Source of the DNA: an uncultured Prolixibacteraceae bacterium
Lineage (GTDB): Bacteria; Bacteroidota; Bacteroidia; Bacteroidales; FEN-979
Assembly: GCA_964449285.1 (NCBI GenBank)
Contig: CAYUZX010000013.1
Coordinates: forward strand, 1 to 58,945
DNA: 58,945 bases
Direction of reading: 5' to 3'
A program made the translations under genes and the position numbers. The notes under the pieces were generated by a model. The model did not search any database, was not told the DNA's origin, and was given only the letters and a program-made list of their open reading frames with translations. This document shows positions 1 to 58,367 of the stretch, in pieces; position 1 is the first letter of the stretch, and each line of letters opens with the position of its first letter.

Positions 1-63
1 CGTCTTACGTCTTACGTCTTACGTCTTACGTCTTACGTCTTACGTCTTACGTCCCTCGTCCCT
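1..63 (-). repeat. Heptamer tandem array: (CGTCTTA)x7 then (CGTCCCT)x2 on the + strand; cut by the window start
   Basis: Read directly; on the minus strand it begins inside the TAG stop (62-64) of the cyclodeaminase gene. Confidence 0.95.
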
Positions 64-1039
64 ACAGGTCAATCTCTTTCCCTACTCCCATTTCTTTTGC
101 TTTATCGTATACCAGCTTTGCGGTAGCGGCATCCTGGATCGCTAATCCGTTGGATTTGAATAGGGTAATCTCATCCTTTGATAATCTGCCAGGTAATTTT
201 CCGATAATGATTTCACCTAATTCGGCATAGAAATGGTGCTCGGTGATAGCGCCTTCCTGCAGCGGGATCATGATATCCCCTGCTTCTTTAAAACAGGCTT
301 CCCTGCTGTCGCCTATAAACTTTGACCGTTTAACAATTTCCGTATCGAGTTCCCTGGCGTTGGGTGTATGGCTTCCTATACCATTGATATGGGTTCCAGG
401 TTTTACCAGTGATCCGTCAAACAGTGGAGTGGGAGAGGAGGTTGCCGTGATGATGATATCTGTCTCAAGAGCCTCTCGGACAGTGCGGGATACAAGGACT
501 TCCATGCCCAGCTTTTTGCTCATCTCAGAAGCAAACTTTGTCGCTGTAACAACATCCTTGTCAAAAACAAATGCTTTGTTCAATGTTCGGGCTACTGTCA
601 CGGCCCAGAGCTGTGTTTTCGCCTGTACTCCGGCGCCGAAAACTCCCGCTGTGAGTTCGTGACCGTCATTCGCGAGGTATTTCGTTGCCACACCGCTGGC
701 CGCACCTGTACGAATTGCAGTCAGGTACCCACCGTCCATGATGCAGATCACTTCGCCTGTTTCAGGATTCTGCAATAATACCTTACCAATGGTGGTTGGG
801 AGGTTGAATCTGATTGGATTATCTTTGTATATAGCCACCACTTTACAGGCAAGGGCTTTCATCTCCTTGAGATAAGCAGGCATATAAAGAGAGAGACCGT
901 CCGGCGACTTGATAGGAATTCTCAACGGCAGATCGGCCGTGCCTTTCACCAATTCAACAAATGCCTTTTCCACTACCTCCATGCAATCTTCCATGGAGAG
1001 TACTTGAATAACATCCTCACGTGTTAAAATAAGAGCCAT
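62..1039 (-). CDS. Ornithine cyclodeaminase / mu-crystallin family protein (alanine dehydrogenase-like)
   Basis: LTAIRTGAASGVAT, GVFGAGVQA Rossmann motif, FKSNGLAIQD C-terminal motif; 325 aa. Confidence 0.9.
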   Translation of the reverse strand: MALILTREDVIQVLSMEDCMEVVEKAFVELVKGTADLPLRIPIKSPDGLSLYMPAYLKEMKALACKVVAIYKDNPIRFNLPTTIGKVLLQNPETGEVICIMDGGYLTAIRTGAASGVATKYLANDGHELTAGVFGAGVQAKTQLWAVTVARTLNKAFVFDKDVVTATKFASEMSKKLGMEVLVSRTVREALETDIIITATSSPTPLFDGSLVKPGTHINGIGSHTPNARELDTEIVKRSKFIGDSREACFKEAGDIMIPLQEGAITEHHFYAELGEIIIGKLPGRLSKDEITLFKSNGLAIQDAATAKLVYDKAKEMGVGKEIDL

Positions 1040-1130
1040 TTTGAATATTTTTGGAGTTTTGACAAAGATGCAGACTTTTTTTTATATTTGTTTATCTTTT
1101 CACAGATTAAATGACTAAACCCTCAACCGA

Positions 1131-1901
1131 ATGGAATACGAAATTTTAAAACTGGACGTAGATCATGGTATTGCTACGATTACCATCAATCGTCCGCAGG
1201 TACTCAACGCTCTGAATTCGCACTTTTTCGTTGAGATGAATCATGTCCTGAATGTGTTGGATGCAGATGAATCGATTAAAGCTGTGATCCTTACCGGTGT
1301 TGACAAAGCATTCGTTGCAGGTGCAGATATTGCTGAGATGTCGGATATGGACTATAACCATGCCAGAAGCTTTTCACTGACAGGGCAGGATACGTTTCAG
1401 CGGATAGAGAACTTTCGCACCCCTGTAATCGCTGCTGTAAATGGTTTTGCACTCGGAGGAGGCTGCGAACTGGCCATGGCATGTGATTTTCGCGTTGCCA
1501 GCAGCAAAGCAAAATTCAGCCAGCCTGAAGTGAGCCTCGGATTGATCCCCGGCTATGCAGGCACCCAACGTCTGTCACGCATTGCCGGGTTATCCAACGC
1601 CTTATATATGATTGTTTCGGGCGATATGATCACAGCAGACGATGCGTTACGGATGGGCCTGGTGCAGAAAGTGGCGGAGCCTGAGGAGTTGCTTGCCGAA
1701 GCCAAAGCTCTGGCTGGCCGCATTGCAACGAAAGGAGCTAAAGCGGTAAAGAAAGCCAAAGAGGTGATCCGGAAGGGAATTCACATGGACTTTGAAGAGG
1801 CCTGTCGTTACGAAGCCGAGGAATTCGCATCACTTTTCGGTAACGGTGAATCCCGTGAGGGAATGAAAGCATTCATAGAAAAACGTAAACCAAACTGGTA
1901 A
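1131..1901 (+). CDS. Enoyl-CoA hydratase (crotonase)
   Basis: AFVAGADI, VIAAVNGFALGGGCELAMACD, PEVSLGLIPGYAGTQRL. Confidence 0.93.
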   Translation: MEYEILKLDVDHGIATITINRPQVLNALNSHFFVEMNHVLNVLDADESIKAVILTGVDKAFVAGADIAEMSDMDYNHARSFSLTGQDTFQRIENFRTPVIAAVNGFALGGGCELAMACDFRVASSKAKFSQPEVSLGLIPGYAGTQRLSRIAGLSNALYMIVSGDMITADDALRMGLVQKVAEPEELLAEAKALAGRIATKGAKAVKKAKEVIRKGIHMDFEEACRYEAEEFASLFGNGESREGMKAFIEKRKPNW

Positions 1902-1988
1902 GGGACGAGGGACGAGGGACGAAGGACGAGGGACGAAGGACGAAGGACGATTTCCCCACCTCATCACCCCATGACCCTATCACTTCAA
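1901..1988 (+). repeat. Composite array: 7x A(G/A)GGACG (1901-1949), then 4 degenerate CACCYCAT-like octamers (1957-1988)
   Basis: Read directly; starts on the last base of the TAA stop of the crotonase gene. Confidence 0.92.
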
Positions 1989-2029
1989 GACAATCAAATA
2001 GTAATCAACTAATAACAAATTCGTAATTT

Positions 2030-3367: not shown

Positions 3368-3385
3368 AAACACGGAGGACATAAG

Positions 3386-5571: not shown

Positions 5572-5579
5572 AGTGATCG

Positions 5580-6725: not shown

Positions 6726-6754
6726 GATACAATTTCTATTATAAAATTACCATT

Positions 6755-8338: not shown

Positions 8339-8351
8339 AGAGAGAACAGGT

Positions 8352-11470: not shown

Positions 11471-11559
11471 GAAAATCGAAATTAGAAATTAGAAATTCCA
11501 CTCTCACCCGATCCCTCAATCCTCTATCCTGGTCCCTCATACCTCATCCTTCGTCCCTG
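11471..11559. repeat. Two heptamer arrays: 4x GAAATTA-like (11471-11498) and 7x GAGGGAC/GAGGAT-like on the minus strand (11511-11559)
   Basis: Read directly; the second array encodes the last codons and TGA stop of the flavin reductase gene. Confidence 0.8.
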
Positions 11560-12047
11560 AAAACGCCAACGATTTCTCCATAGTAAACTATGTGAAAATC
11601 CCTTGTTGGATAATATTGTTCAATGATGGCAGGGTCAAGTGTTGACGGGTCGAGCCGGTGTTTGTGTATGATGCGGCATTCATAATGGATTGTTGACTCC
11701 TGGATGTAAAATGCTGTGGTGCTCTCACCCTTGGTCATGTTGAATCCACAGGCTTCCGCTTTATTCACGTCCTGTCCTGAACGGGTTCCGCAAAGCATAA
11801 TTTCTTCTTTGTATTTATCAGAGAGTATGTTGACCGTGAATGCCTGACTATCTTCCATTAACCCGAACGTATACCGGGTAGGTCTTACAAGCACCTGAAC
11901 AACAGGGCGGCTCCAAATATACCCAAGTGTCCCCCAGCCTATCGTCATCGGGTTTGGTGGCACTCCAGCAACTAGAAGGATACCATCGCCCCGCATTTTC
12001 TCCATCGTCTCCTCAAATGCTTCGAATGTTCCTATCTCTATTCGCAT
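11544..12047 (-). CDS. Flavin reductase-like family protein
   Basis: NPMTIGWG, VRPTRYTF, FTVN, CGTRSG, YECRI, HIVYYGEI. Confidence 0.88.
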   Translation of the reverse strand: MRIEIGTFEAFEETMEKMRGDGILLVAGVPPNPMTIGWGTLGYIWSRPVVQVLVRPTRYTFGLMEDSQAFTVNILSDKYKEEIMLCGTRSGQDVNKAEACGFNMTKGESTTAFYIQESTIHYECRIIHKHRLDPSTLDPAIIEQYYPTRDFHIVYYGEIVGVFRDEG

Positions 12048-12088: not shown

Positions 12089-14341
12089 ATGCTAACAAAG
12101 GTAGAGAAAATAATGCTCATCTCCCTGTTTGCTTGTTTTTCGGCAGCAGGATTTTCACAGGTTGAATATCAGAAGATTACACTCGAGGATGTAATTCAAC
12201 GGAGGACATTCTCATCGAGAGGCGTGTATGGCATGCAACCTCTCAAGGATGGCCGTCACTTTAGTCAGGTCAAAAATGATAGCCTCAATGTCTATGATTA
12301 CGCTACAGGAGATTATATTAGTACGATTGTCGCCTCCACAGATTTGATCCCGAAAGGTGATTCTACACCTGTCCCAATCTCCAGCTACGAGTTTAGTGAG
12401 AATGAAAAGAGGATCCTCTTTACGGACGAGGAGGAAGCAATCTACCGTCACTCTACTAAAGCATACTATTATATATACGATATTGAGACCAGAAAGTTGA
12501 TCCCGTTATCGACAGGCGAGAAACAACGGTTAGCTACACTTTCCCCGGATGGGAATAAAGTAGCATTTGTTCGCGACAACAACATCTTTATCAGGGATCT
12601 TGAATCCGGTTTCTGGAATTCCAGCCAGGAGGGGGGGCAGGATGGTGATAGCAACCGTGATCCAGTATTCACTAGCGAGATGCAAATCACATCTGATGGA
12701 CAGTTTAACGAGATCATCAATGGAGCTACGGATTGGGTATATGAAGAGGAGTTTGGTTTTACCAAAGCGTTTTTCTGGGCACCCGACAGTAAAAAGATTG
12801 CCTACTATCGCTTTGACGAGAAACAGGTAAAAGAATATAAGCTGGAATATTACGGGGAAGTCTATCCTGAGATTTATACATACAAATACCCCAAGGCTGG
12901 GGAGGATAACTCGCTGATTGAGATAAAAATTTACAATCTTGAAACAGGCGAGACGGTTCCGGTCGAAATTGGAGAAGATACAGATATTTATATTCCCAGG
13001 ATCAAATGGACAACGAACCCCAACTCCCTTGCCTTGTATCGGATGAACCGCCACCAGAATAAACTGGAGCTCATACTGGCAAATGCGGGTAATGGTTCAT
13101 CAACGGTGATCCTGGCCGAAAACAATCCATGGTATATTGACATCACCGACGACTGGACATTTCTGAAAGATGGCAATTCGGTTCTCCTGACCAGCGAAAA
13201 GGACGGATATAATCACATTTATCTGTATGACCTGAATGGAAATCTTATCAGGCAACTTACTTCAGGTAACTGGGAAGTGACAGCATTATATGGCGTGGAT
13301 GAAGCGCATGGCCTTGTCTATTTTCAGTCGGACCAATCATCTCCCCTGAACCGGGATGTGAACGTAGTTAGCATGGATGGGAAGGGCTATCGGACTCTCT
13401 CCGGGAAAGATGGTTACGCCAGGGCTCAGTTCAATGCTGATTATACATACTATGTAAATAACTGGTCCGATATCAATACGCCTCCGGTAATTACTTTAAA
13501 CAAAGCTGATGGGGAAGAAGTACGGATTCTTCAGGATAATGAAATACTTCTGGGCCGGATGAAGGAGTACGATTTTTCAAAAGTGGATTTTTTCACTTTC
13601 AGGACTGAAGACGGCCTGGATCTTAACGGTTGGATGTTGAAACCACCCGATTTTGATCCGATGAAACGATATCCGGTACTATTTACGATTTATGGTGGCC
13701 CTGGCTCCCAGACTGTTGCAAATCGCTGGGGAGCCGCCAGTGCATGGAACCAGCTGATGGCACAGCATGGAATCATTGTGGTCTCTGTCGACAACAGGGG
13801 GACAGGTGCCCGTGGCCAGGAGTTCAAGAAATGCACCTATCTCGAGCTCGGAAAATTTGAAACACTTGATCAGATAGAGGCTGCTAAGTATCTTGGAGCC
13901 TTGCCCTATGTAGATAAAGACCGGATTGGCATGTGGGGTTGGAGCTTTGGGGGTTACCTCACACTTTCTTGCCTGACAAAGGGAGCTGATTATTTCAGCA
14001 TGGGTGTCGCTGTTGCGCCCGTGACGAACTGGAAATACTATGATAATATTTATACAGAGAAGTTCATGCGTACCCCCGGGGAGAATGAAAAAGGATACGA
14101 GGACAACTCTCCTGTTAATCACGCAGAGAAGTTGAAAGGGAAGATTCTGATCATTCATGGGATGGCCGACGACAATGTCCATGCCCAGAACACGTATGAT
14201 ATGATCACTGCTTTGGTTGCATCAAACAAACAGTTTGATCTTCAGGTATACCCAAATAGCAACCACGGCATCTATTCCGGGAAAAATACTTCCTGGCACA
14301 ACTACAGCAGGATGACAGCGTTTATTCTGGAAAATCTTTAA
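12089..14341 (+). CDS. dpp4: Dipeptidyl peptidase IV (S9B family), secreted
   Basis: Signal peptide, DWVYEEE, YPKAG, GWSFGG nucleophile, DDNVH, NHGI. Confidence 0.93.
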   Translation: MLTKVEKIMLISLFACFSAAGFSQVEYQKITLEDVIQRRTFSSRGVYGMQPLKDGRHFSQVKNDSLNVYDYATGDYISTIVASTDLIPKGDSTPVPISSYEFSENEKRILFTDEEEAIYRHSTKAYYYIYDIETRKLIPLSTGEKQRLATLSPDGNKVAFVRDNNIFIRDLESGFWNSSQEGGQDGDSNRDPVFTSEMQITSDGQFNEIINGATDWVYEEEFGFTKAFFWAPDSKKIAYYRFDEKQVKEYKLEYYGEVYPEIYTYKYPKAGEDNSLIEIKIYNLETGETVPVEIGEDTDIYIPRIKWTTNPNSLALYRMNRHQNKLELILANAGNGSSTVILAENNPWYIDITDDWTFLKDGNSVLLTSEKDGYNHIYLYDLNGNLIRQLTSGNWEVTALYGVDEAHGLVYFQSDQSSPLNRDVNVVSMDGKGYRTLSGKDGYARAQFNADYTYYVNNWSDINTPPVITLNKADGEEVRILQDNEILLGRMKEYDFSKVDFFTFRTEDGLDLNGWMLKPPDFDPMKRYPVLFTIYGGPGSQTVANRWGAASAWNQLMAQHGIIVVSVDNRGTGARGQEFKKCTYLELGKFETLDQIEAAKYLGALPYVDKDRIGMWGWSFGGYLTLSCLTKGADYFSMGVAVAPVTNWKYYDNIYTEKFMRTPGENEKGYEDNSPVNHAEKLKGKILIIHGMADDNVHAQNTYDMITALVASNKQFDLQVYPNSNHGIYSGKNTSWHNYSRMTAFILENL

Positions 14342-14380: not shown

Positions 14381-14408
14381 TATTTTATATTTTACATTTT
14401 GCATTTTA
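14381..14408 (+). repeat. 4x (T/C)ATTTT(A/G) heptamer array
   Basis: tatttta tatttta cattttg catttta. Confidence 0.6.
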
Positions 14409-14420
14409 ATTTTTATCTGG

Positions 14421-16216: not shown

Positions 16217-16301
16217 GGGGAGATACCAGAGCGGTCAAATGGGGCAGACTGTAAATCTGTTGGCTAAGCCTTCGGAGGTTCGAATCCTCCTCTCCCCACC
16301 A
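16217..16301 (+). tRNA. tRNA-Tyr(GTA), CCA encoded
   Basis: GGGGAGA/TCTCCCC acceptor stem, CTGTAAA loop, long variable arm, GGTTCGAATCC. Confidence 0.96.
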
Positions 16302-16307
16302 CTACAG

Positions 16308-16371
16308 TAGCGAAATAGCGAAATAGTGAAATAGCGAAATTTCGCTACCTCACATTTTCACTACCTCACTG
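16308..16371. repeat. Octamer array 4x TAGYGAAA followed directly by 4 inverted degenerate units
   Basis: tagcgaaa tagcgaaa tagtgaaa tagcgaaa | tttcgcta cctcacat tttcacta cctcactg. Confidence 0.85.
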
Positions 16372-16379: not shown

Positions 16380-16452
16380 GCGGAAGTAGCTCATTTGGTA
16401 GAGCGGAAGCCTTCCAAGCTTCAGGTGGCGGGTTCGAGCCCCGTCTTCCGCT
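16380..16452 (+). tRNA. tRNA-Gly(TCC)
   Basis: GCGGAAG/CTTCCGC acceptor stem, GAAGC-CTTCCAA-GCTTC anticodon arm. Confidence 0.95.
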
Positions 16453-16515
16453 CAAACCTAGGCTTTAAGCCGGGCTTTTACTTGACCCCGGATTTCGTCC
16501 TGGGATTGAGAAAAA

Positions 16516-24200: not shown

Positions 24201-25048
24201 AGGATAAGAACGAGATGGTCAAAGTGTTGATCAACAATTTTATTATCAAACATAAAGAGTTGCTTGGCAAATACAACCGGATCAAATTTACATCCATGGT
24301 AGGCGATGATCTCCCTGCCGGTATTGTGCAGATGGCTAAGGTATATATCGCCAAGAAGAGAAAGCTCAAAGTAGGGGATAAGATGGCAGGCCGTCACGGT
24401 AACAAAGGTATTGTTGCGAGGATTGTCAGGGAAGAGGATATGCCCTTCCTGGAAGATGGTACACCTGTGGATGTTGTCCTCAATCCACTTGGGGTGCCAT
24501 CACGGATGAATCTCGGGCAGATCTATGAAACCATCCTGGGTTGGGCCGGAAAGAAACTCGACATGAGGTTCACTTCGCCAATTTTCAACGGAGCCACCCA
24601 AGACCAGATCAACGCATACCTGCGTCAGGCAGGCCTTCCCGAAAACGGGAAAGTCTATCTCTATGATGGCCTCAGCGGTGATCGGTTCGATCAGCCAACC
24701 ACAGTTGGTTATATCTATATCATGAAGTTACACCACATGGTGGATGACAAAATGCACGCCCGTTCAATCGGGCCATACTCCTTGATCACCCAGCAACCTC
24801 TGGGCGGGAAAGCCCAGTTCGGAGGCCAGCGTTTTGGTGAGATGGAGGTATGGGCACTTGAGGCTTTTGGCGCTGCCAACATCCTCCTGGAGATCCAGAC
24901 AGTGAAATCCGACGATGTTATCGGCCGGGCAAAGGCATATGAAGCTATCGTTAAAGGCGATAATATGCCTATATCGGGAATCCCCGAATCCTTTAATGTA
25001 CTGATTCACGAGTTACGTGGCCTTGGATTAAACGTCACCTTCGATTAG
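21242..25048 (+). CDS. rpoB: RNA polymerase beta subunit (TTG start)
   Basis: [55 protein letters not shown]. Confidence 0.99.
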
Positions 25049-36520: not shown

Positions 36521-36577
36521 GGTATTACCTTTTCTCTCTTTTCCTGATTAATTGGATAGAAGAAAAGTACGGTGCCG

Positions 36578-38824
36578 ATGAATCCATGGAAACCCTTTCC
36601 ATTGATCCGATTGCTAATCCCATTTCTGGGCGGGGTGGTCTATGCCCTGAAGGAGGCTGGCTGGCAGCCGGAAGAGCGCTGGTTGATAGGAGTTATAGGA
36701 TTTCTTACTACTGGTTTACTGCTCTTTACGTTATTAGGCAAATTACCTTTCAGCCTTCGATGGATCCCTGGTACGACAACCTGCTTGCTTATGCTTTGTT
36801 TGGGAGTGTTAACAGTCCAAAGCAACAGTCCAAAGTTAGTTGGCAGTGAGCAGTGGGTAGTGGGCAGTGAGCAGTTGGCAGTTGGCAGTTCCGATTTTCG
36901 AATTTTTCCCGCTGAAATTGCCGAGCCCCCACGCCATACACCCAAAACAGTGAAGCTGATCGTTAGTAGGTACAACCTCGACACGAATGCAAACGCACTT
37001 ATCCGGGAAGGAAAAGCATTACTGTTTCTCGAAAAGGATACAAACTCACAGGCTCTTCAATATGGCGACTGGATTCTTGTCTCAACCTTGCTGAAACCCG
37101 TGAAGAACGAATCCAACCCCTATGGTTTCGACCCAGCAGGATATTACGGAAGGAAAGGAGTGTTCAGTCAGGGCTGGGTAGGATCAGCTGACTGGAAACT
37201 TGCCGGAATACCTGAACACAGTTCAATCAGAGGTCTGGCATTTGCTTCTCGTGACCGGTTATTGAAGATTTTGCGGGAAAATTCCATAAAAGGGGAGGAG
37301 TTTGCAGTAGCTTCTGCCATCTTACTGGGTTATACCGGTGAGATTGGGCAGGATTTGAGAAGAGGGTTCGCTGCCAGTGGAGCTATGCATATCCTGGCCG
37401 TCTCGGGAATGCATGTGGGGATCATTTTTCTTTTCCTGGAGACCATCTTTACCTTTCTCAATCGCAGGAGGCATGGGCCAACGGTCAAAGCGGTTCTGAT
37501 GATCCTGATGATATGGTGTTACGCGATGGTCACAGGATTATCTCCACCGGTATTCCGGGCAGGCTTGATGCTCAGTCTGGTGATCCTTGGCAGAACGTTC
37601 AAACGGAAACCCGACTCACTGAATGTGGTTGGAGGATCAATGTTTGTCATACTCCTGCTGGACCCAACACTGATTCTCCATCTTGGATTTCAGTTTTCTT
37701 ACCTGGCTGTTTTCGGGATCCTGTTTCTCTATAGGCCCATTGTTGACCTGATCCCTGCTACGGGATGGGCGCCCTCCCGGCTGTGGGGCCTGGTTGCAGT
37801 TTCCATCGCTGCACAAATCGCTACGTTTCCTATCGCGCTCTATGCCTTTCATCAGTTTCCTAACTACTTTATTCTGACCAACATAATTGTACTCCCCTTG
37901 GCCAGCCTGCTGATTTACAGTGGCATCGGGGTACTTGCCCTGAGTCCCGTTCCATTTCTTTCCGCATTTCTTGCGAAGGGACTCTCGTTCATCGCAGGCT
38001 TAATAAATTCTACAATCCGTTTTATCGAAGCGTTACCAGGCTCCACATTCACAGGTCTTTACCCATCGCTCCCGGATGTCCTGATGCTTTACTTTGGAAT
38101 TGTATCAATATGTTGTTTTCTTTTTTTCCGGCGAGCTGTTTGGGCTTACATGTTTTTCATCCTTATCATCTTCTGGTCCTTAACCGGGATCTACAAGGAT
38201 TACATGCGTACCAATCGCAGCATGGTTGTTGTGTTTCAAATAAAGGGAGCTTCTCAGTACGTTTTTGTGGAAGGCCGAAGCGCCGTATGTGTCAAGGATT
38301 ACCAGGCAGCCTGCCAGGAACAATATGCCTTGGAGGTACTTTCTACGTTCATGTCGGCCGAAGGGATTACTACTGCACAAACGACCTATCTGACAGACAG
38401 ACACGCTCATGTTGCAGATGATTTTCGTGAGTTTGGTTCTCTTGCCCGGAAAGGGAACTTGCTGCAGTTTTCCAATAAGCGAATTGCAATCATCTCATCC
38501 GAACTCCCGTTCGCACTTTCAGACACCCTGGAGGTCGATCTTGTGATTGTTCGGAAGAACCCGGATATACATATGGAAACAGTAGTTCGACTTCTCAGGC
38601 CTGAACAAATTGTTATCGACCCAACCAACTCGTGGTACAATGCCCGGAAGTGGAAAGAACAATCAGAAGTGTTGGGTATTCTATGCTATAGTGTTGCGGA
38701 GGATGGGGCGTATGTGCTGGATGTCAGGAGACTGGGATGTCGGATACCGGATAAAAAAAACGCCCCTTTTAAGGGGCACTTTTTGCGGTCTGGACGAGAC
38801 TCGAACTCGCGACCTCCGCCGTGA
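36578..38824 (+). CDS. comEC: ComEC/Rec2 competence protein
   Basis: NPYGFD (DUF4131-like), GAMHILAVSGMHVG, VFRAGLM, GFQFSYLAV; many TM helices; 3' end overlaps tRNA-Asp. Confidence 0.88.
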   Translation: MNPWKPFPLIRLLIPFLGGVVYALKEAGWQPEERWLIGVIGFLTTGLLLFTLLGKLPFSLRWIPGTTTCLLMLCLGVLTVQSNSPKLVGSEQWVVGSEQLAVGSSDFRIFPAEIAEPPRHTPKTVKLIVSRYNLDTNANALIREGKALLFLEKDTNSQALQYGDWILVSTLLKPVKNESNPYGFDPAGYYGRKGVFSQGWVGSADWKLAGIPEHSSIRGLAFASRDRLLKILRENSIKGEEFAVASAILLGYTGEIGQDLRRGFAASGAMHILAVSGMHVGIIFLFLETIFTFLNRRRHGPTVKAVLMILMIWCYAMVTGLSPPVFRAGLMLSLVILGRTFKRKPDSLNVVGGSMFVILLLDPTLILHLGFQFSYLAVFGILFLYRPIVDLIPATGWAPSRLWGLVAVSIAAQIATFPIALYAFHQFPNYFILTNIIVLPLASLLIYSGIGVLALSPVPFLSAFLAKGLSFIAGLINSTIRFIEALPGSTFTGLYPSLPDVLMLYFGIVSICCFLFFRRAVWAYMFFILIIFWSLTGIYKDYMRTNRSMVVVFQIKGASQYVFVEGRSAVCVKDYQAACQEQYALEVLSTFMSAEGITTAQTTYLTDRHAHVADDFREFGSLARKGNLLQFSNKRIAIISSELPFALSDTLEVDLVIVRKNPDIHMETVVRLLRPEQIVIDPTNSWYNARKWKEQSEVLGILCYSVAEDGAYVLDVRRLGCRIPDKKNAPFKGHFLRSGRDSNSRPPP
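36811..36889 (+). repeat. 12-bp direct duplication plus 7x nnGCAGT heptamer array, in frame inside comEC
   Basis: AACAGTCCAAAG at 36811 and 36824; tggcagt gagcagt gggtagt gggcagt gagcagt tggcagt tggcagt at 36841-36889. Confidence 0.9.
38753..38784 (-). terminator. Intrinsic terminator downstream of tRNA-Asp (potentially bidirectional)
   Basis: A8-CGCCCCTT-TT-AAGGGGCAC-T5. Confidence 0.75.
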
Positions 38825-38859
38825 CAGGGCGGCATTCTAACCAACTGAACTACCAGACC
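38786..38859 (-). tRNA. tRNA-Asp(GTC)
   Basis: Reverse complement GGTCTGGTAGTTCAGTTGGTTAGAAT...CTGTCAC...GTTCGAGTC...CCAGACCG; TAAATTTG promoter element at 38873-38880. Confidence 0.96.
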
Positions 38860-43190: not shown

Positions 43191-44459
43191 ATGATAACCG
43201 AAGAATTTTTACACTATTTGTGGCGATTCAGGCTACTCCAGGCACCTCTTTATTGTGTTTCAGGAGAGCCTGTGATGGTCGTTCATCCGGGAGAATACAA
43301 CCGTAACAGTGGCCCTGATTTTATCAATGCGCGGATTCAGATTGGAGGAACATTGTGGGCGGGAAATGTAGAGATTCATCTGCGTGCGGCCGACTGGTTT
43401 CGTCATGGACATCAGGCAGATCCTGCATATCACAATGTGATACTTCACGTGGTTGACACCTTCGACAGGGAGGTTATTGGTGCAGGTAATCAGCCAATTC
43501 CTTGCCTGGAGGTCAGTGCAAACTATCCGGCTACCCTCATAGCGACTTATAAGGATATCCTGTCGGCAAAGCAATGGATTCCCTGTCAGAACATGTTGGA
43601 AGAGGTTGACCCCTCTATATTCAGGTTATGGGCTCCTGCGCTGGCTATTGAAAGGATTACCATCAGGATTAAATCACTCAGAACATGGCTGAATCATTCG
43701 AAAAACCGGTGGGATGAACTGGCGTATCAGGTACTTGCAAGCGCTATGGGAAATATGATCAATGCCCAACCCTTTGAGCTCCTTGCAAGATCAACTCCTC
43801 TCAGTATCCTAATGCGCCATCGGGACCAGGTTCCCATCCTCGAGGCTCTTTTGTTTGGACAGGCGGGTTTGCTGGACCTATCGTACAAGGAGAGTTACCC
43901 TGTTGAACTTCTCCGGACGTACCTTTTTTACAAGGATAAATATTCCCTGAAACCGCTAGAAAGGGGAACGTGGAAATTCCTCAGGTTAAGGCCTGTCAGT
44001 TTCCCAACCATCCGAATCAGTCAACTCGCTGATATCATTCATCAGCGCGAGGGTTTTCAGGAGAGTCTACAGGAGGATGTACAGGTAGCTGGCTGGATTG
44101 AAATACTCAAGGCAACAGCTAGCGCCTACTGGGATTCTCATTACACCTTCGAACGGGAGTCAGCTTGTCAAGTCAAAAGGCTCGGGACGAATACCATTCA
44201 TCTGCTTCTCATCAATGGTATCGCACCACTGCTTTTTTTATATGGGACGGAGAAAAACCTGACTCATTATTCGGAAAGGACAATCTCCCTGCTTGAAGAG
44301 ATCCCCGGAGAAAAAAACGCCCAAACCACTACCTGGTCCAAACTCGGTATGCCAACCGATAATGCCATCTATACGCAGGCGCTTAAACAGCTTAAGCGTG
44401 CTTATTGTGACGAAAAACGATGCCTGGAATGCAGAATTGGAGCGAGGCTGCTGAGATGA
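43191..44459 (+). CDS. DUF2851 family protein
   Basis: EEFLHYLW, GPDFINA, WAGNVEIH, HGHQADPAYHNVILHVV, LRPVSFPTIR, C-terminal CxxxxCxxCxIG. Confidence 0.88.
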   Translation: MITEEFLHYLWRFRLLQAPLYCVSGEPVMVVHPGEYNRNSGPDFINARIQIGGTLWAGNVEIHLRAADWFRHGHQADPAYHNVILHVVDTFDREVIGAGNQPIPCLEVSANYPATLIATYKDILSAKQWIPCQNMLEEVDPSIFRLWAPALAIERITIRIKSLRTWLNHSKNRWDELAYQVLASAMGNMINAQPFELLARSTPLSILMRHRDQVPILEALLFGQAGLLDLSYKESYPVELLRTYLFYKDKYSLKPLERGTWKFLRLRPVSFPTIRISQLADIIHQREGFQESLQEDVQVAGWIEILKATASAYWDSHYTFERESACQVKRLGTNTIHLLLINGIAPLLFLYGTEKNLTHYSERTISLLEEIPGEKNAQTTTWSKLGMPTDNAIYTQALKQLKRAYCDEKRCLECRIGARLLR

Positions 44460-45118
44460 TGAAACCAACACAGATCATAAAACATTACCTCTCCTTCAGC
44501 AGAGGAGAACAGAGGGGGATCATTATCCTTGTGCTCATTGTTCTATTGATCAATGTCTTCAGGATATATATCCCGAATGTAAGGCGGTTAAAGCCGGTTG
44601 ATTTCTCAGCATTTAGAATTGAATTAGAGAGATTCCAGGGGCAGCCATCTTCACAGTTTACCGATCCCGCCAAACGTTCCGATTCAACAGAATCGAACAA
44701 GAGTTGTCAGAATATCTCATTCATCATTGAGTTGAATCGTGCTGATACACTGGACCTTCAACGACTCAGGGGGATTGGGCCCTCTTTCGCACGCAGGATC
44801 ACCGGTTACAGGAAGAGACTCGGAGGATTTATATCTACCGACCAGCTTATGGAGGTATATGGGATGGATTCGGCCCGGTATCTGGGGATCAGGAAGTACC
44901 TGAGGGTTGATGCTTCAATCATCCAACCGATGAACCTAAATACCATATCTTTCAAAAAATTAATTGCTCACCCTTACATGACTTATGAACTGGCAAAGGA
45001 AATTGCGCTTTATAGGAAGAGGCATAAAGGAATCGGGAATCTGGAAGAGTTGAATGGGTTGAAAAACTACGATAGTGTCACTTTCAGCAGATTGAGGTCT
45101 TACATAAGCGTCAAATGA
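44456..45118 (+). CDS. ComEA-like helix-hairpin-helix protein
   Basis: N-terminal TM helix; ELNRADTLDLQRLRGIGPSFARRI, LGGF, second HhH LNTISFKKL. Confidence 0.85.
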   Translation: MMKPTQIIKHYLSFSRGEQRGIIILVLIVLLINVFRIYIPNVRRLKPVDFSAFRIELERFQGQPSSQFTDPAKRSDSTESNKSCQNISFIIELNRADTLDLQRLRGIGPSFARRITGYRKRLGGFISTDQLMEVYGMDSARYLGIRKYLRVDASIIQPMNLNTISFKKLIAHPYMTYELAKEIALYRKRHKGIGNLEELNGLKNYDSVTFSRLRSYISVK

Positions 45119-45212
45119 CCAAGAAACAAATTCCAAATAACAAATAAATTACAATGAATGAAACTTAATGACCAAATCACAAACATCAAATTTCAAATAA
45201 ATATCAATGACA
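45114..45212 (+). repeat. Degenerate heptamer array (AATGACC/AAATTCC/AAATAAC-like), left arm
   Basis: aatgacc aagaaac aaattcc aaataac aaat aaattac ... aatgacc aaatcac aaacatc aaatttc aaat aaatatc aatgaca. Confidence 0.8.
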
Positions 45213-45575
45213 GAAAACTCAAATACCAAACGTGTCTTTGACTTGGAAGAGAGAACTTTAAAGTTTGCTTTGCGAGTAAGACTTTTCATTAAGAAATTAC
45301 CTGGTACAACAGCTAATATTGAAGATGGTAAGCAGTTAATCAGAGCATCGGGTTCTGTTGGTGCGAATTCTATTGAGGCAAATGAATCTCTTAGTAAAAA
45401 GGACTTCCTCTATAGAATAAAAGTTTGTCTCAAGGAGTCAAAGGAGAGTGCTTATTTTCTGAGACTGATAAAAGAGACTAATTCAGACCAATTTGAAAAG
45501 GAAGCGGCGGAGCTGCTAAATGAAGCAAACGATCTAAAGAAGATATTCTCTTCTATTGTAAAAAAATCGCAATAG
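45207..45575 (+). CDS. Four-helix bundle protein (23S rRNA IVS protein / Avd-like, TIGR02436-like)
   Basis: DLEERTLKFA, KQLIRASGSVGANSIEANESLSKKDF, KESKESAYFLRL, EANDLKKIFSSI. Confidence 0.9.
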   Translation: MTENSNTKRVFDLEERTLKFALRVRLFIKKLPGTTANIEDGKQLIRASGSVGANSIEANESLSKKDFLYRIKVCLKESKESAYFLRLIKETNSDQFEKEAAELLNEANDLKKIFSSIVKKSQ

Positions 45576-45586
45576 CCTATTTGATT

Positions 45587-45628
45587 ATTGGAATTTATTT
45601 GTTATTTGGTAATTGGTCATTGGAATTT
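45587..45628 (-). repeat. Inverted heptamer array, right arm
   Basis: Reverse complement aaattcc aatgacc aattacc aaataac aaat aaattcc aat; 45592-45609 is the exact reverse complement of 45133-45150. Confidence 0.85.
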
Positions 45629-46326
45629 CTATAATGGTAACTTATTTCAGGCGGTATTGGTGGTTTGGGAGCCTTGGGATCATCCGGATGATAACCGGAG
45701 TATGGGTCTTCATTGTCGTCGTCATCCTCATCTTCCCAGTCATAGCGGGGCCGCTGGGGGCCGACTTTGCGGAAATAAATTGCGAGGATTGTTCCGGCAA
45801 GCAAACCCATCAGGTGTCCTTCCCAGGAGATTCGCTCCTTTGGAAAGAATTGTGGGAAGACTCCCCAGATAAGTCCACCATAAAGAAAGGCGACCAGGAG
45901 AGTAATAGCCATGAGTTTGATCTCCCTTCGGATGATACCGCTGGTGAACAAAAAAGCCGCCAGTCCATATACTACTCCGCTGGCGCCGATATGTAACGAT
46001 CCCTGAGCGCCGAGGAACCAGACCCACAGACCGGATATGACATAGATCAAAATCAGTACTTTCCATGCAATTTCCCTGTAGGAATAGAAGAGAAATGCTG
46101 CCAGAAGGAATAGTGGGATCGAGTTGGCAAACAGGTGGTTCCACCCTGCGTGAATAAATGGCATGGTGAAAATTCCGTAGATCCCTTTCCATTGCATGGG
46201 GTATAACCCATATTCGGCAAAAGAGATGTCCAGAATAACCTCCAATGCCTTCACAAACCAGATTATCAGGACGAAGATCGTTGGGAAAAAAAGGCTTCGT
46301 ATCAGTTTATTTCGTTCTGGGTCCAT
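45595..46326 (-). CDS. Rhomboid family intramembrane serine protease
   Basis: PFIHAGWNHLFAN, HIGASGVVYG, SWEGHLMG. Confidence 0.92.
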   Translation of the reverse strand: MDPERNKLIRSLFFPTIFVLIIWFVKALEVILDISFAEYGLYPMQWKGIYGIFTMPFIHAGWNHLFANSIPLFLLAAFLFYSYREIAWKVLILIYVISGLWVWFLGAQGSLHIGASGVVYGLAAFLFTSGIIRREIKLMAITLLVAFLYGGLIWGVFPQFFPKERISWEGHLMGLLAGTILAIYFRKVGPQRPRYDWEDEDDDDNEDPYSGYHPDDPKAPKPPIPPEISYHYRNSNDQLPNNK

Positions 46327-46451: not shown

Positions 46452-48059
46452 ATGAAAACCACGTCGGACCTGCCATATAGAATAACCATTCAACTATTCC
46501 TACTGTTATTGTTTCCACTGTTTCTCACAGCTCAGAATTCAACCCCCAATGAAGGCCTTAGAAAGTTACAGGTTGCTTTGCAGATCATCGATTTTGCCTA
46601 TGTAGATTCTGTGCATGAGGATAAACTGGTTGAGACTGCAATCGTGGAGATGCTCAAAGATCTTGATCCCCATTCGATCTACATTCCAAAAGAGGAACTG
46701 CAGCGGGCCAACGAACCATTGCAAGGTAATTTTGAAGGAATCGGGGTTCAGTTTGAGATACTCAAGGATACAATTGTCGTCGTACATCCACTTACGGGAG
46801 GTCCTTCCGAAAAACTCGGAATCAGCTCAGGAGATAAGATCGTTAAAATTGACGGAGAGGATGTAGTTGGGAAACATGTGAATAATCAGTTCGTTCTTGA
46901 TCATCTTCGCGGGAAAAAAGGAACAAAAGTCAACGTGTCAATCTACCGTAAAGGGAGAAAAGGCTTGCTCGAGTACGTCATTATACGAGACAAGATACCC
47001 ATAAACAGTATTGATGCAGTGTATATGATCGCCCCCGAAATTGGGTACATCAACCTTAACCGGTTCTCTCTTACCACAACCCAGGAGTTCCAGGATGCTG
47101 TTAAACTTCTGAAGGGTGAAGGGATGAAGAGACTGATCCTGGACCTGAGAAACAATGCCGGAGGGTATATGGCACCTGCGATTGAACTCTCCGACGAATT
47201 CCTCGGATTGGGGAAAATCATTGTTTATACTGAAGGGATGAGGAGCCAGAGAGAGAATTTCTACTCTACCTTCAGGGGTAATTTTGAAAATGGGAAGCTG
47301 GTGATTATGATCAATGAAAACAGTGCATCCTCCAGTGAGATTGTTGCCGGTGCCATTCAGGACTGGGACCGTGGGTTGATTGTGGGTCGGCGTTCGTTCG
47401 GCAAGGGTTTGGTTCAGCGGCCTTTCAACCTGCCCGACACGTCCCAGATCAGGTTAACCACAGCCAGATATCATACACCTTCAGGCCGTTATATTCAGAA
47501 ACCATATAAGAATGGAGTTGAAGAGTATTACAAGGATTTTGCCAGGCGCTATAGCAGGGGAGAACTGGTTCATGCTGACAGTATCAAACTTCCGGATTCA
47601 CTTAAATACCAAACTGCAAATGGCCGGACTGTCTATGGTGGCGGCGGAATCATGCCCGATGTCTTTATTCCCTGGGATTCTACTTTCCTGACTGATTATT
47701 ATATTGATGTGCGGCGGAATAATATCGTCAACCCACTTGTGAGCGAATATGTTGACAAAAACCGGCAGGAACTACTGAAAGAATTTCCGGATTTCGCATC
47801 CTATAAAACCAATTTTGAAATTGGGGAGCCATTGATGGAACTCTTCTTTAATGCTACTGAAGAAGCTGATATGGAGAAGAATGAAGAACAATTCACGACT
47901 TCTGAGCCCTTGATCAAAGCACAGATCAAAGGGTTGATTGCCCAAAAACTTTACAACATCACTTCCTTCTATATCATTGCCAATGAGATGGATCCCGAAG
48001 TGATACGGGCAGTGGAGATCATTCAGGATAATAGCCTTTTCGAGGGATTATCGAATTGA
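46452..48059 (+). CDS. S41 family carboxy-terminal processing protease
   Basis: LDPHS, PDZ domain (GIGVQF, GDKIVKID), LDLRNNAGG, SASSSEIVAGAIQD, SFGKGLVQ; start at MKTTS after TACCTTTG. Confidence 0.93.
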   Translation: MKTTSDLPYRITIQLFLLLLFPLFLTAQNSTPNEGLRKLQVALQIIDFAYVDSVHEDKLVETAIVEMLKDLDPHSIYIPKEELQRANEPLQGNFEGIGVQFEILKDTIVVVHPLTGGPSEKLGISSGDKIVKIDGEDVVGKHVNNQFVLDHLRGKKGTKVNVSIYRKGRKGLLEYVIIRDKIPINSIDAVYMIAPEIGYINLNRFSLTTTQEFQDAVKLLKGEGMKRLILDLRNNAGGYMAPAIELSDEFLGLGKIIVYTEGMRSQRENFYSTFRGNFENGKLVIMINENSASSSEIVAGAIQDWDRGLIVGRRSFGKGLVQRPFNLPDTSQIRLTTARYHTPSGRYIQKPYKNGVEEYYKDFARRYSRGELVHADSIKLPDSLKYQTANGRTVYGGGGIMPDVFIPWDSTFLTDYYIDVRRNNIVNPLVSEYVDKNRQELLKEFPDFASYKTNFEIGEPLMELFFNATEEADMEKNEEQFTTSEPLIKAQIKGLIAQKLYNITSFYIIANEMDPEVIRAVEIIQDNSLFEGLSN

Positions 48060-49348
48060 TGCAATTCCCACACATCCATGTAGCTCTGCCAGTGATGGAT
48101 GAACCCGAATGGCTTCCGGTCATTCTCAGTTTGATTGAACAACAAACCTACAGGCATTTCTCTGTTGTGGTCTGTGTCAATCAGCCGGAGGCGTGGTGGG
48201 TCGACCCCTCACGGTTATCAGCTTGTAAAAATAATACCCAAAGCCTCTCCCTTCTTGAGAATGTCTCAGGTTTTCCGGTGGAGGTGATTGACAGGAGCTC
48301 AAGGGGTGCAGGCTGGATCGGGAAGAGACATGGTGTAGGTTGGGCCAGGAAAACCGTAATGGATCAAATTTCCCGTAAAGCCGAGCCAGACGATATTATC
48401 CTTAGCCTGGATGCCGACACGCTCTTTTCCGAATGCTATTTCGAATCTGTGGCTGAAGCCATGTCGACACATCCTCATGCGACTGCGTTATCGATTCCAT
48501 ATTATCATCATTTGCCTGATGATCAGGATGCTGCGCGCGCAATCCTGAGATATGAGATCTATATGCGATACTATCTCTTAAACCTGTGGAGAATCAAGAG
48601 TCCATATGCATTCACTGCACTTGGATCGGCAATGGCCTTTCCTGTATGGGCTTACCGCAAGGTTCGGGGGATGACGCCGAAACTCAGCGGGGAGGATTTC
48701 TATTTTCTGCAGAAGCTCCGAAAAGCAGGAAAGCTGATCAACTGGAACCGGGAGAAAGTCTTTCCTGCAGCCAGATTCTCGTCGCGTGTTTTTTTTGGAA
48801 CCGGCCCGGCCATGATCCGTGGTTCCGGTGGTGACTGGGGAAGTTACCCGGTCTATTCCTACAGGTTGTTTGATGAGATCGGAGAGAGTTATAGCTTTTT
48901 CAAGGAGATGTACATACGGACCCTTGAAACCCCTGTTACCAGGATCCTTCAGGAGCAAACAGGGGAAGAAGACCCCTTCGCGACGCTACGTAGAAATTCC
49001 AGAGAGATGCATCAATTTATCAGGGCTTGTCATGAAAAATTCGATGGGTTACGGATCTTGCAATATTTGAAAAAGAGGCATCAGGAGGAGGGAGGCCAGG
49101 ATGAGGAGAATCTGGTTGATTGGCTGAAAACTTTCTATCCGGAAGAGTTGATTTCCTTGATGTTGGATTCTGGAAATACGGAACCCGAAACCCGAACCGG
49201 AGCGAACCGGAGCTCGGCGAAGCCAAACGCGAATGGCGGTCAAAAGAAGTTCTCTTTTACTGATAGCAGCCTGGAGGAGATCGACCAGGTAAGAAATTTC
49301 CTCGTAGTTGAAGAGGATCGGGTCAGAAAGGAGAATCCGCTGTTTTGA
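48059..49348 (+). CDS. GT-A fold glycosyltransferase (GT2-like)
   Basis: ALPVMDE, GVGWARK, SLDADT, GEDFYFLQKL, FGTG. Confidence 0.75.
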   Translation: MQFPHIHVALPVMDEPEWLPVILSLIEQQTYRHFSVVVCVNQPEAWWVDPSRLSACKNNTQSLSLLENVSGFPVEVIDRSSRGAGWIGKRHGVGWARKTVMDQISRKAEPDDIILSLDADTLFSECYFESVAEAMSTHPHATALSIPYYHHLPDDQDAARAILRYEIYMRYYLLNLWRIKSPYAFTALGSAMAFPVWAYRKVRGMTPKLSGEDFYFLQKLRKAGKLINWNREKVFPAARFSSRVFFGTGPAMIRGSGGDWGSYPVYSYRLFDEIGESYSFFKEMYIRTLETPVTRILQEQTGEEDPFATLRRNSREMHQFIRACHEKFDGLRILQYLKKRHQEEGGQDEENLVDWLKTFYPEELISLMLDSGNTEPETRTGANRSSAKPNANGGQKKFSFTDSSLEEIDQVRNFLVVEEDRVRKENPLF

Positions 49349-49368
49349 AACGGGTTTAAGGATGGTTA

Positions 49369-50559: not shown

Positions 50560-50651
50560 ATGTATATCTGTCTTTTGCGAGACTTCAAAAGTACTAACTA
50601 GCAACCGAATTTCAAAATAACATTAGTAACTTTGCCGTTTATCGGAGGAAA

Positions 50652-51305: not shown

Positions 51306-51346
51306 TCTTCCGTAAAATTAATTTCCAGAATCAGCGTTTAAAAGTT

Positions 51347-56966: not shown

Positions 56967-57011
56967 ACATCGTTATTAAGTAAAAAAAACCGCCATGAAA
57001 ATATAAAAAAA

Positions 57012-58367
57012 TCACAACCCACCACCCTCACCATCCCCACCACCCTCATCACTCCTCAACACGATCAGCGTTACCTCTGCCCAAATCCCCACTCGTCCGG
57101 TATATCCAATCGTTCCTGCACCGCGGTTTACGTAGAGATATTGTGTGGTTCCATTCTCCCATTTTTTTTGATATAAACCGGCCCACTCAGGATAGAGATA
57201 CTGGACGAAACTCCACTGCCACTGGCTGGTTTCAATTCCCACCTGGCCACCATGAGTATGCCCGGAGAATGTGAGATCGATATCGGGATATGATTTACTT
57301 ACGATGCTGTCCCAGTGTGTTGGATCATGAGATAGCAAGAGTTTCGTCAAGATGGTTTCGGTGCCAGCTAGTGCTTTTGGCATGTCGGCAAGTCGTTGGA
57401 ACCTACCTATAACTCCCCAGTTTTCTACGCCTATTATTGCAAGGCTATCACCGTTCAAGACCAGTACGTCGTGTTCGTTTTTTAACAATTTCCATCCCAT
57501 TTCATCATAAAATCTATCGAGGTCCAGCATATTTTGCTTTTTTGCTTCTGAAGAGGTCCATGTCATGTAGGCTCCGTAGTCGTGGTTCCCCAGAATTGCA
57601 TAGACGCCATATTTTGAATCGATTTTTCTCAATATATCCTGAAATGGCCATGCTTCCATGGTTGAGTAGTTACACAGGTCTCCTGTAAAAAAGAGAAGAT
57701 CGGGATGGAGTTTGTTGATTAACTCAACGAGTTCTTCAAGTTTGGATTTTCGGTTCCAACTTCCAAGATGTAGATCTGAGATTTGCACGATCCGCAAACC
57801 ATCAAATGAACGTGGAAGTTTCTCGAGTGTGATCTCACTTTTCCTCACCTTAAAGTGATGCTCCCAAATTACCATGCCGGCCAGCATCAGAATAAAAAGA
57901 AGTGAACCTAGAAACCATCCTGCCAGAAAGAGCTTCCGGGGTTTCCGATTCCACAGTTTGAAACGAGGAGAGAGCTTTGCCAGGATCAGTAAGACTCCCT
58001 GATATAGAAGGGTGGCAAAAAGAAAGATTATGGGAAGGATTCTTGTAGCATAAGCGATGAAGACAACGCTTGTCAGGTATGTTTTTATAAAACGGGGCCA
58101 GAAATAGTAAGTGCTGAAGAAGCCATAGGTGACTCCTGCAATCACCAATCCAAAGGGCATCCAAAAGAGGATTCCAAGGAGGTATCTATAGACCGGTTTC
58201 AGCGATCGGATCTCTTGCCAGGTGATTACCCACAAGAAGGCATCCAGGAAGAGAAAGATAAGAAAATAGTTGAGGGCTCCGGTATTTTTCGGAAAGACCT
58301 GTTTTAGTATCCAAACCAGAAGGATTGAGACTGTGATAAACAGGACTCCCCGGAGTAGCCTTTTCAT
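57012..58367 (-). CDS. Membrane-anchored metallophosphoesterase (YkuE/LpxG-like)
   Basis: SDLHLG, TGD, LGNHDY, SHDP, SGHTHGGQ; N-terminal TM helices. Confidence 0.9.
   Translation of the reverse strand: MKRLLRGVLFITVSILLVWILKQVFPKNTGALNYFLIFLFLDAFLWVITWQEIRSLKPVYRYLLGILFWMPFGLVIAGVTYGFFSTYYFWPRFIKTYLTSVVFIAYATRILPIIFLFATLLYQGVLLILAKLSPRFKLWNRKPRKLFLAGWFLGSLLFILMLAGMVIWEHHFKVRKSEITLEKLPRSFDGLRIVQISDLHLGSWNRKSKLEELVELINKLHPDLLFFTGDLCNYSTMEAWPFQDILRKIDSKYGVYAILGNHDYGAYMTWTSSEAKKQNMLDLDRFYDEMGWKLLKNEHDVLVLNGDSLAIIGVENWGVIGRFQRLADMPKALAGTETILTKLLLSHDPTHWDSIVSKSYPDIDLTFSGHTHGGQVGIETSQWQWSFVQYLYPEWAGLYQKKWENGTTQYLYVNRGAGTIGYTGRVGIWAEVTLIVLRSDEGGGDGEGGGL

Follow-up and report, generated by a model that had tools for sequence, protein, structure and literature searches.

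A probable intervening sequence-like four-helix-bundle gene cassette with tandem-repeat arms outside rRNA, and its gene-free derivatives

Introduction

Small genes for four-helix-bundle (4HB) proteins of the TIGR02436/PF05635 family, stand-alone relatives of Avd, are very common in bacteria and, to our knowledge, are "hypothetical" with no assigned function. Dispersed heptamer repeats, among them the short tandemly repeated repetitive (STRR) sequences and other long simple sequence repeats, have served for decades as typing markers. Both occur together in a 58,945-nt stretch of DNA, hereafter the window (CAYUZX010000013.1, which is contig C13 of G000, a 3.3-Mb, 142-contig genome that is ~95% complete; GCA_964449285.1), in which a 4HB gene lies between inverted heptamer arrays and further arrays are scattered around it. 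An earlier note on the window had proposed that arrays and gene form one system. Here, we report that the link between the two is real and general, beyond what that note could see. The function of the 4HB family and the origin of heptamer repeats are two old puzzles, which may be one. If gene and repeats form one cassette, both become testable by simple binding, RNA-processing, and mobility assays.

The nearest described element is the intervening sequence (IVS) of 23S rRNA with an S23p/PF05635 open reading frame (ORF), known from Leptospira, Coxiella, Xanthomonas, and Brucella. According to passages of one report, rRNA IVSs sit in helix loops, and the IVS of Coxiella combines a terminal stem of 28 bp, cut by RNase III, with an S23p ORF and, upstream of that ORF, tandem heptamers whose copy number varies among strains (PMC4990558). 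Beyond this mention for Coxiella, no paper in the open literature (subscription journals and supplements lying outside it) was found to tie the PF05635/4HB family generally to flanking inverted tandem arrays, and TIGR02436 is named in no paper of the searchable open literature.

Two other systems invite comparison. Avd, the accessory protein of diversity-generating retroelements (DGRs), binds nucleic acid, and short structured repeats such as the Rickettsia palindromic elements, REPINs, and miniature inverted-repeat transposable elements (MITEs) occur in coding genes as extra surface peptides. PF05635 proteins are related to Avd, which is likewise a small four-helix-bundle protein forming pentamers, as stated in part of one paper (PMC10053308). 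In the available portions of two further papers, heptamers are the commonest class of long simple sequence repeats in many genomes, with clusters close to stop codons in Xanthomonas and Nostoc, and have been suggested to act in translation or as G-quadruplexes (PMC4679880, PMC4692102).

Results

A 4HB gene lies between inverted heptamer arrays

The gene at 45207..45575 (+) encodes a 122-aa protein that scores above the curated family cut-off of TIGR02436 (69.2 bits, cut-off 24), matches PF05635 (S23p, 23S_rRNA_IVP; 43.5 bits, cut-off 33.8), and resembles PDB entry 2RLD (E = 2.5e-12), which has 5 chains. Xcc0516 of the same family is a homopentamer, as cited in the part of PMC4990558 available. 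On the left, the gene is preceded by degenerate A-rich heptamers of the CAAATAA type (45114..45206, +; Tandem Repeats Finder row 45125-45147), which span from the stop codon of a comEA-like ORF (44420..45118) to the 4HB start codon. On the right, the reverse complement of these heptamers (45576..45628, +; row 45606-45627) overlaps the stop of a rhomboid-like ORF on the opposite strand (45595..46326, -). As assessed by RNA folding of 45105-45645, the two arms pair in the minimum-free-energy as well as in the centroid structure (z = -2.8). The second of the two local inverted pairs described in the earlier note is likewise borne out. It is a gene-free hairpin (16308..16371) in the tRNA-Tyr/tRNA-Gly spacer (tRNA genes at 16217-16301 and 16380-16453), where TAGCGAAA repeated 4.1 times (16308-16340; Tandem Repeats Finder) runs directly into an imperfect inverted copy.

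The element shares with rRNA IVSs the protein family encoded in the loop and the terminal inverted repeats around the ORF, since an S23p-family ORF lies within repeats (45114-45206/45576-45628) able to form a ~28-bp stem; stems are of ~28-30 bp, the figure for Coxiella coming from the passages cited above. The Coxiella element, as described there, also has variable-copy heptamers upstream of its ORF, and a sporadic distribution, which in the same passages suggests horizontal transfer, is a further likeness. Unlike an IVS, the window element is not inserted in a 23S or 16S rRNA helix, but lies between the comEA-like and rhomboid-like genes, where there is no rRNA gene; one gene-free hairpin sits in a tRNA spacer; and the arms are themselves tandem arrays of 7-8 nt units. 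We class it as an IVS-like cassette that lies outside rRNA and has tandem repeats for arms, together with its gene-free derivatives.

The gene is alone only within the window. The genome as a whole has 9 TIGR02436 matches plus one truncated remnant with arms (C88:2914-3153), so that its description as a lone gene did not hold beyond the stretch first inspected. Searches of nine 4HB loci against Rfam returned 0 matches at E values up to 1, and no relative of the window protein was found in a phage collection.

Inverted arrays accompany 4HB genes in the genome, in its relatives, and across phyla

By eye, six of the nine 4HB genes of G000 are enclosed by an array and its inverted copy. The other three have one upstream array at a contig end, a downstream hairpin only, and no array, respectively. 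For each testable ORF of the genome (n = 2388), the two flanks were compared and their best inverted match was scored; six 4HB ORFs ranked 6, 7, 11, 11, 14, and 16, the gene of the window being 6th. Inverted flanks are thus enriched at 4HB genes, without being exclusive to them. The two strongest flanking inverted repeats of the genome, at C78:1006-2301 (score 49) and C11:3690-3902 (score 38), do not belong to 4HB genes and may represent an insertion sequence and another small cassette.

Ten related genomes gave the same picture. All 23 of their 4HB regions have an upstream array by eye, and an inverted downstream array is present in each of the 14 flanks that could be read, every locus having its own unit. 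In the subfamily of the window protein, retrieved from metagenomes at 46-84% identity, the arms are A-rich and of the CAAATAA type, often abutting the ATG, and 11 of 16 loci lie above the 95th percentile of permuted pairs for inverted arms (one duplicate locus and loci with short flanks having been dropped).

We then scanned across phyla, using a consensus-like relative as single query and one genome per species, which yielded 80 loci from 17 named phyla. Counting arrays with a period of at least 5 and no fewer than 2.8 copies that lie no more than 250 bp from the gene, 68 of the 80 loci have a tandem repeat beside the 4HB gene, with 7 and 8 as the dominant periods (79 and 49 rows). The array is upstream in 54 loci, downstream in 51, and on both sides in 39. 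Upstream arrays end a median of 37 nt before the ATG and downstream arrays begin a median of 11 nt after the stop; median copy numbers (4.4 and 4.3) and lengths (32 and 31 nt) are nearly the same on the two sides. Up to 250 bp from the gene there are 2.75 arrays per kb, compared with 0.15 per kb in the rest of the same loci, an 18-fold difference, and 117 of 139 arrays fall within 330 bp of a 4HB-like region. Within loci the upstream unit equals the reverse complement of the downstream unit, while units differ among loci. The inverted-match score has a median of 17.5 versus 9 for permuted pairs, and 20 of the 77 testable loci exceed the permuted 99th percentile (three loci with short flanks were left out).

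Repeat period and protein lineage are inherited together, which supports the unity of arrays and protein proposed earlier. On a tree of the 80 proteins, period 7 versus 8 needs 5 changes (mean of 200 shuffles 22, minimum 15), unit class 26 changes (mean 37, minimum 31), and host phylum 27 changes (mean 34, minimum 32). Arms and gene are thus inherited together, also across phyla; as kin share labels, this is co-inheritance rather than proven co-evolution.

Plasmids carry the same arrangement. Ten plasmid loci were inspected (eight cyanobacterial, one from Gemmatirosa, one from Riemerella), and nine, seven of them cyanobacterial, are flanked on one or both sides by heptamer or octamer arrays. 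Several plasmid 4HB genes sit inside operons. In plasmids of Anabaena sp. 90, Pseudanabaena galeata, and Picosynechococcus sp. PCC 7003 (loci L236, L240, and L242), a 4HB gene with heptamer arrays lies between genes of CRISPR-Cas operons, either cas6 and cas4 or cmr2 and cmr3; the upstream array of the Anabaena sp. 90 locus is ~300 nt long. A cassette would explain such 4HB genes between genes of conserved operons on cyanobacterial plasmids. Insertions into cas operons may also be the reason why a screen for CRISPR association lists "23S rRNA IVP" in a figure legend (PMC10910872, of which only part was available).

Orthologous sites are filled, arm-only, or empty

The earlier note had called for a comparison of orthologous loci, and filled, arm-only, and array-free states were all found. 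The convergent junction between comEA and the rhomboid gene is kept across the family. G000 and G004 carry the gene there, their proteins being 72% identical, and in G004 the left arm runs straight into the ATG. A hairpin of arm sequences without the gene is present in G002, arm remnants are retained in G009 and G001, and the two genes abut without arrays in G007, G003, G013, and G015. In the same spacer, G005 (L042) has a non-array palindromic element of ~100 nt in place of the 4HB cassette, and G010 (L049) has a run of N, which may be a scaffold gap, amid array-rich sequence.

Conversely, sites filled in relatives were inspected in G000. At a first one, where G002, G003, G007, and G013 of another genus carry a 4HB gene, G000 has a three-unit array of the same unit family. 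At a second (C70), where G008 is filled, it has an empty two-unit hairpin of the same unit. A third retains a solo array, and at two further sites nothing is left. Because these arrays and hairpins occupy sites that are filled in relatives, orphan arrays are cassette remnants at a few loci. To that extent the earlier proposal that orphan arrays are scars stands; it does not extend to the majority, ~95% of arrays being solo and many lying in frame in essential genes.

These data also bear on a different account, in which the hairpins arise alone, as terminators or processing sites, and the 4HB ORF is homing cargo that enters their loops, as in rRNA helices 25 and 45, so that the arms are the target rather than part of the element. 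Empty array hairpins do occur at conserved sites, namely at C70 and in the tRNA-Tyr/tRNA-Gly spacer, where their units differ by species, hairpins are absent in two, and both arms change together. The comEA-rhomboid hairpin of G002 is a gene-free form, the Ignavibacteriaceae locus L105 consists of an array and an adjacent inverted array with no gene, and rRNA IVSs occupy helix loops according to the passages cited (PMC4990558). Yet period and unit class track protein phylogeny across host phyla, and the window subfamily shares its A-rich unit type among unrelated metagenomes, both of which are hard to reconcile with local targets. The gene at the first site is present in three genus members and in G013, so the gene-free three-unit array of G000 is most simply a loss. 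In addition, genomes that have no 4HB genes seldom have arms (0-0.5 arrays per 10 kb). We therefore consider it unlikely that the arms are mere targets. In the tRNA-Tyr/tRNA-Gly spacer of G002 (L191), a perfect GC-rich hairpin that is not tandem replaces the array hairpin of its sister species.

Arrays form a genome-wide population

Tandem Repeats Finder reported 702 rows of period 7 in G000, 520 of them with three or more copies, compared with 67 and 6 in a shuffled control generated by a third-order Markov model of the genome. Period 8 gave 294 rows, 152 with three or more copies, compared with 100 and 2. The period common to the arrays is thus real and far above chance. There are 137 canonical heptamer units, and a few related families dominate, the commonest being AATTACG (50), ATCCGGC (41), AACTGCC (38), and ACGTCTC (34). 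Copy number shows a plateau at 3-5 copies and no sharp peak among G000 arrays. As many as 42 of the 284 contig ends fall in arrays; arrays break assemblies.

After merging, 637 arrays were classed by position relative to a crude gene model (longest non-overlapping ORFs, n = 2711). We found 219 to be intergenic, 122 to overlap a stop codon, 6 a stop and a start, and 37 a start (start calls being unreliable), 252 to lie inside an ORF, and 1 elsewhere. The bias toward stop codons that had been noticed in the window is largely automatic: a heptamer array shows all three frames within 21 nt, so any unit with TAA, TAG, or TGA ends an ORF that runs into it. Of the stop-overlapping arrays, 100 of 122 are G-rich on the sense strand. 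Orientation relative to transcription shows no bias in co-directional spacers (57 versus 65) or deep in ORFs (71 versus 62).

Among the ORF-internal arrays, 141 of 252 are deep, i.e. no closer than 300 nt to the ORF start and no closer than 150 nt to the stop. As assessed by translation and Pfam matches, these are in-frame linker inserts in housekeeping proteins. In cysteinyl-tRNA synthetase (CysS) an array insert separates the catalytic and DALR domains, FGAR amidotransferase (FGAR-AT) has inserts between domains in two places, and a Pol III alpha-family protein and a MutS-family protein carry in-frame inserts as well. Arrays thereby add lineage-specific peptides to housekeeping proteins. In an alignment of CysS from 20 genomes, outgroups have a short loop where members of the genus have array-encoded peptides that differ in sequence and length. 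Because of these differences within the genus and the short loop of the outgroups, the array islands of the CysS loop are, as judged from this alignment, lineage-specific insertions with turnover. The inserts are found in G000 C15:8546-10126 and its orthologues L079-L103, and exactly at this loop the G007 gene breaks off, its two parts lying on separate contigs.

We compared this population with known heptamer repeats, i.e. STRR of filamentous cyanobacteria, long simple sequence repeats, GGGNATC of Xanthomonas/Nostoc, and TAACTGA of Beggiatoaceae. The likeness is close, and the resemblance to STRR-type repeats pointed out earlier was apt. There is a strong period-7 excess of dispersed, head-to-tail 7-nt units, many unit types have few copies each, arrays are enriched near stop codons, and copy number varies among relatives. 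They are not STRRs in the strict sense, for which the named units and a filamentous cyanobacterial host would be expected. The units here differ, and the host is probably Bacteroidota-like, judging from a DUF2851 protein, a weak rhombosortase-model match of the rhomboid-like ORF, and two unsplit ORFs (21242..25048, 1268 aa; 25098..29384, 1428 aa) within the tRNA-tuf-rpl cluster, which we read as rpoB and rpoC. Moreover, the available parts of those reports mention no tie to a gene family, whereas here matched inverted arms surround TIGR02436 genes, on cyanobacterial plasmids too, and arrays also lie in frame inside essential genes.

Compared with palindromic elements, in-frame repeats are likewise tolerated in genes, and gene-free hairpin derivatives exist here too. 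The arrays differ from them in having no conserved full-length consensus, in that 95% have no inverted partner, and in that no cognate transposase was found. We ruled out a MITE or REPIN type, with 30 of 637 arrays having an inverted partner, no island grammar, and no linked transposase, and dropped a composite mobile element with a fixed island grammar, 449 of 569 array islands being single arrays.

Solo arrays share their units with cassette arms more often than expected. Of 661 solo arrays, 40 have the exact unit of a resident arm, compared with 5.1 for letter-shuffled units, and 207 are within one mismatch of one, compared with 72. Solo arrays are thus related to cassette arms. The octamer of 16308-16340 recurs at 97-100% identity in many places in related genomes. 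At distances above 1 kb from any 4HB gene, array density increases with the number of 4HB genes per Mb (Spearman 0.62, 20 genomes), which is only suggestive, as the genomes are related and the samples small (~20-40 kb per relative).

Could plain repeat biology suffice, with slippage-prone replication or repair favoring units of 7-8 nt, as has been suggested for the heptamers of many prokaryotes, and 4HB genes merely lying in repeat-rich intergenic DNA? Heptamers are the commonest long repeat class elsewhere and lie near stops in Xanthomonas and Nostoc (PMC4679880, PMC4692102, both available in part), 95% of the arrays of G000 are solo, orientation is unbiased outside the stop-overlap class, and array islands turn over in a single CysS loop among species. 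All of this fits. Left unexplained are the matched inverted pair around 4HB genes, the 18-fold enrichment of arrays beside them in 17 named phyla, the co-inheritance of period and protein clade, the dominance of a few related unit families, and the sharing of units by solo arrays and arms. We give this account little credence.

Still less probable is that the arrays, solo ones included, are cis-acting RNA or DNA sites for the 4HB oligomer or another factor (in translation, termination, or as G-quadruplexes), with the arms serving autoregulation. Arms of ~4.4 units would suit the pentamers of the family (the five chains of 2RLD; Xcc0516, as cited in part of PMC4990558), the left arm abuts the start codon in the window subfamily, and translational or G-quadruplex roles have been proposed elsewhere, in the portions of PMC4679880 and PMC4692102 available. 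Nevertheless, the solo arrays have no strand preference in spacers or deep in ORFs, more than 130 heptamer units stand against ~10 paralogues, and many arrays lie within coding sequence.

A repeat-armed 4HB cassette as the most probable explanation

Probably, the window holds local members of a single type of IVS-like, tandem-repeat-armed 4HB cassette, together with its debris. The core unit consists of an array ~30-35 nt long (~4-5 units, each of 7 or 8 nt), followed by a short leader, a 4HB gene of ~120 aa, and a reverse-complement array just past the stop. This is the architecture of a 23S rRNA IVS with an S23p ORF, placed between ordinary genes, in the window between the comEA-like and the rhomboid-like gene. 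The arms, which are inherited with the gene across phyla too, would belong to the cassette, and their units would drift and be homogenized by slippage while the arms stay complementary. Loss of the gene would leave arm-only hairpins or single arrays. In the genus, arrays of the same unit families would have multiplied to ~640 copies, including the in-frame linker inserts of housekeeping proteins. In read-through transcripts, by analogy with IVSs, the arms may form a ~30-bp stem that RNase III could cut, looping the cassette out. The pentameric 4HB protein might recognize the periodic arms, and solo arrays would descend from arms by loss, slippage, and some process of seeding.

Several observations weigh against this reading. 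The cassette does not directly explain the ~95% of arrays that are solo, as an inverted partner lies no more than 150 bp away for only 30 of 637 (control 5), and 141 arrays lie deep within long ORFs, where no gene cassette can have sat. Some 4HB genes have no array, i.e. the one at C47 in G000, 12 of the 80 cross-phylum loci at the chosen threshold, and the Calothrix plasmid locus, and the arrays of the Pseudanabaena plasmid locus are direct, not inverted. Ordinary genes, too, can lie between inverted pairs of common units and then score high. Kin share labels, so the tree changes and the cross-genome correlation overstate independence. No transposase or recombinase was found tied to the element. 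Because the 4HB paralogues of G000 share only 19-32% identity, they are old, with no sign of recent transposition. Finally, RNA-library contigs from public reads cover 45450-46284, and the RNA evidence for the element is a single such contig over 45450-45655, which may be DNA carry-over.

Beyond the window, a broader proposal is possible, and we hold it tentatively. 4HB pentamers and 7/8-nt arrays may be a protein-repeat pair that makes up a widespread, undescribed class of selfish cassettes, of which the rRNA IVS is a special case. The ring protein would read the arms at about one unit per subunit and thereby control or propagate the cassette, and decayed or escaped arms would seed the heptamer populations of several lineages, including the cyanobacterial ones of the STRR type, and the in-frame inserts in essential genes seen here.

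A degenerate or unusual DGR, in which an Avd-like protein and a reverse transcriptase would write the repeats, is hardly tenable and was dropped for G000: it has for it the PF05635-Avd family relationship (PMC10053308, in the part available), and against it a different genomic setting with single 4HB cassettes between unrelated genes, no template/variable repeat pair seen in G000, and 0 matches to PF00078 (RVT_1) in the whole genome, barring a reverse transcriptase in the unassembled 5%.

Other arrays and features of the window

The earlier note had listed arrays of similar unit size along the window, and Tandem Repeats Finder called arrays in 10 of its 11 intervals. The exception is a weak, degenerate repeat close to the 3' end of a ComEC-like ORF (38718..38754), for which there is no row at a score of at least 30. 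A CRISPR array was ruled out, the units being contiguous and of 7-8 nt, compared with CRISPR repeats of 20-40 nt with unique spacers.

Besides the two cassette arms, four arrays overlap ORF stops, so that six ORFs are affected in total, i.e. 62..1039(-), 1131..1901, 11544..12047(-), 44420..45118, 45595..46326(-), and 57012..58367(-). At the contig start, CGTCTTA repeated 7.6 times (1-53, 100% matches) and then CGTCCCT twice make up an array at 1..63, which overlaps the stop of an ornithine-cyclodeaminase-like ORF, 62..1039(-). The array at 1901..1988 (AGGGACG/AAGGACG repeated 7.1 times at 1901-1950, then a C-rich array of period 8 at 1957-1983) begins at the stop codon of an enoyl-CoA hydratase-like ORF, 1131..1901. 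At 11471..11562 (rows 11478-11497 and 11512-11562), GAAATTA repeated 2.9 times precedes a C-rich array of period 7/21, and this C-rich part overlaps the stop of a flavin-reductase-like ORF, 11544..12047(-). A C-rich array of period 9 at 57012..57057 (-; row 57018-57045) encodes the C-terminal tail and stop of a metallophosphoesterase-like ORF, 57012..58367(-). An AT-rich array of ATTTTAC repeated 4.7 times (14381..14413; row 14382-14413) had been placed at a stop codon. It starts 40 nt 3' of the DPP-IV-like ORF 12089..14341, and the placement is thus corrected.

Two arrays are in frame inside genes, as originally described. Heptamers of the GCAGTGG type repeated 7.4 times (36838..36889, +; Tandem Repeats Finder, frame open) encode residues ~90-106 of the ComEC-like ORF 36572..38824, within its DUF4131 match. 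The short arrays AACCCGA and CGAACCGGAG, each repeated 2.1 times (49173..49213, +; row 49182-49213), lie in frame within the GT2-like ORF 48056..49348.

A few minor features complete the window. The rhomboid-like ORF beside the cassette has a weak, below-cut-off match to the rhombosortase model. For the cassette itself, one contig each from X21 and X10 joins arm-like sequence via 83 other letters, not the 439-nt interior; these contigs match over only 22 nt per side, may stem from another organism or locus, and were not used as evidence. Upstream of several 4HB genes, by 20-40 nt, lies a motif composed of ATAACCTTTT, 7-8 nt, TTTTCCGATTAAT, and then a G-rich/A-rich stretch (G000 sites C4:66774, C11:4064, C21:19056, C21:22416, and C28:6042, and 36528-36552 in the window). 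Because it also precedes unrelated genes, including the ComEC-like ORF of the window, it is not 4HB-specific and probably acts as a promoter or leader signal of general use in the lineage. At the other end of the ComEC-like ORF, a terminator-like hairpin (38755-38790) directly follows the weak repeat, beside tRNA-Asp (38785-38859, minus strand); the ORF as listed extends into this tRNA, and its true stop may be earlier.

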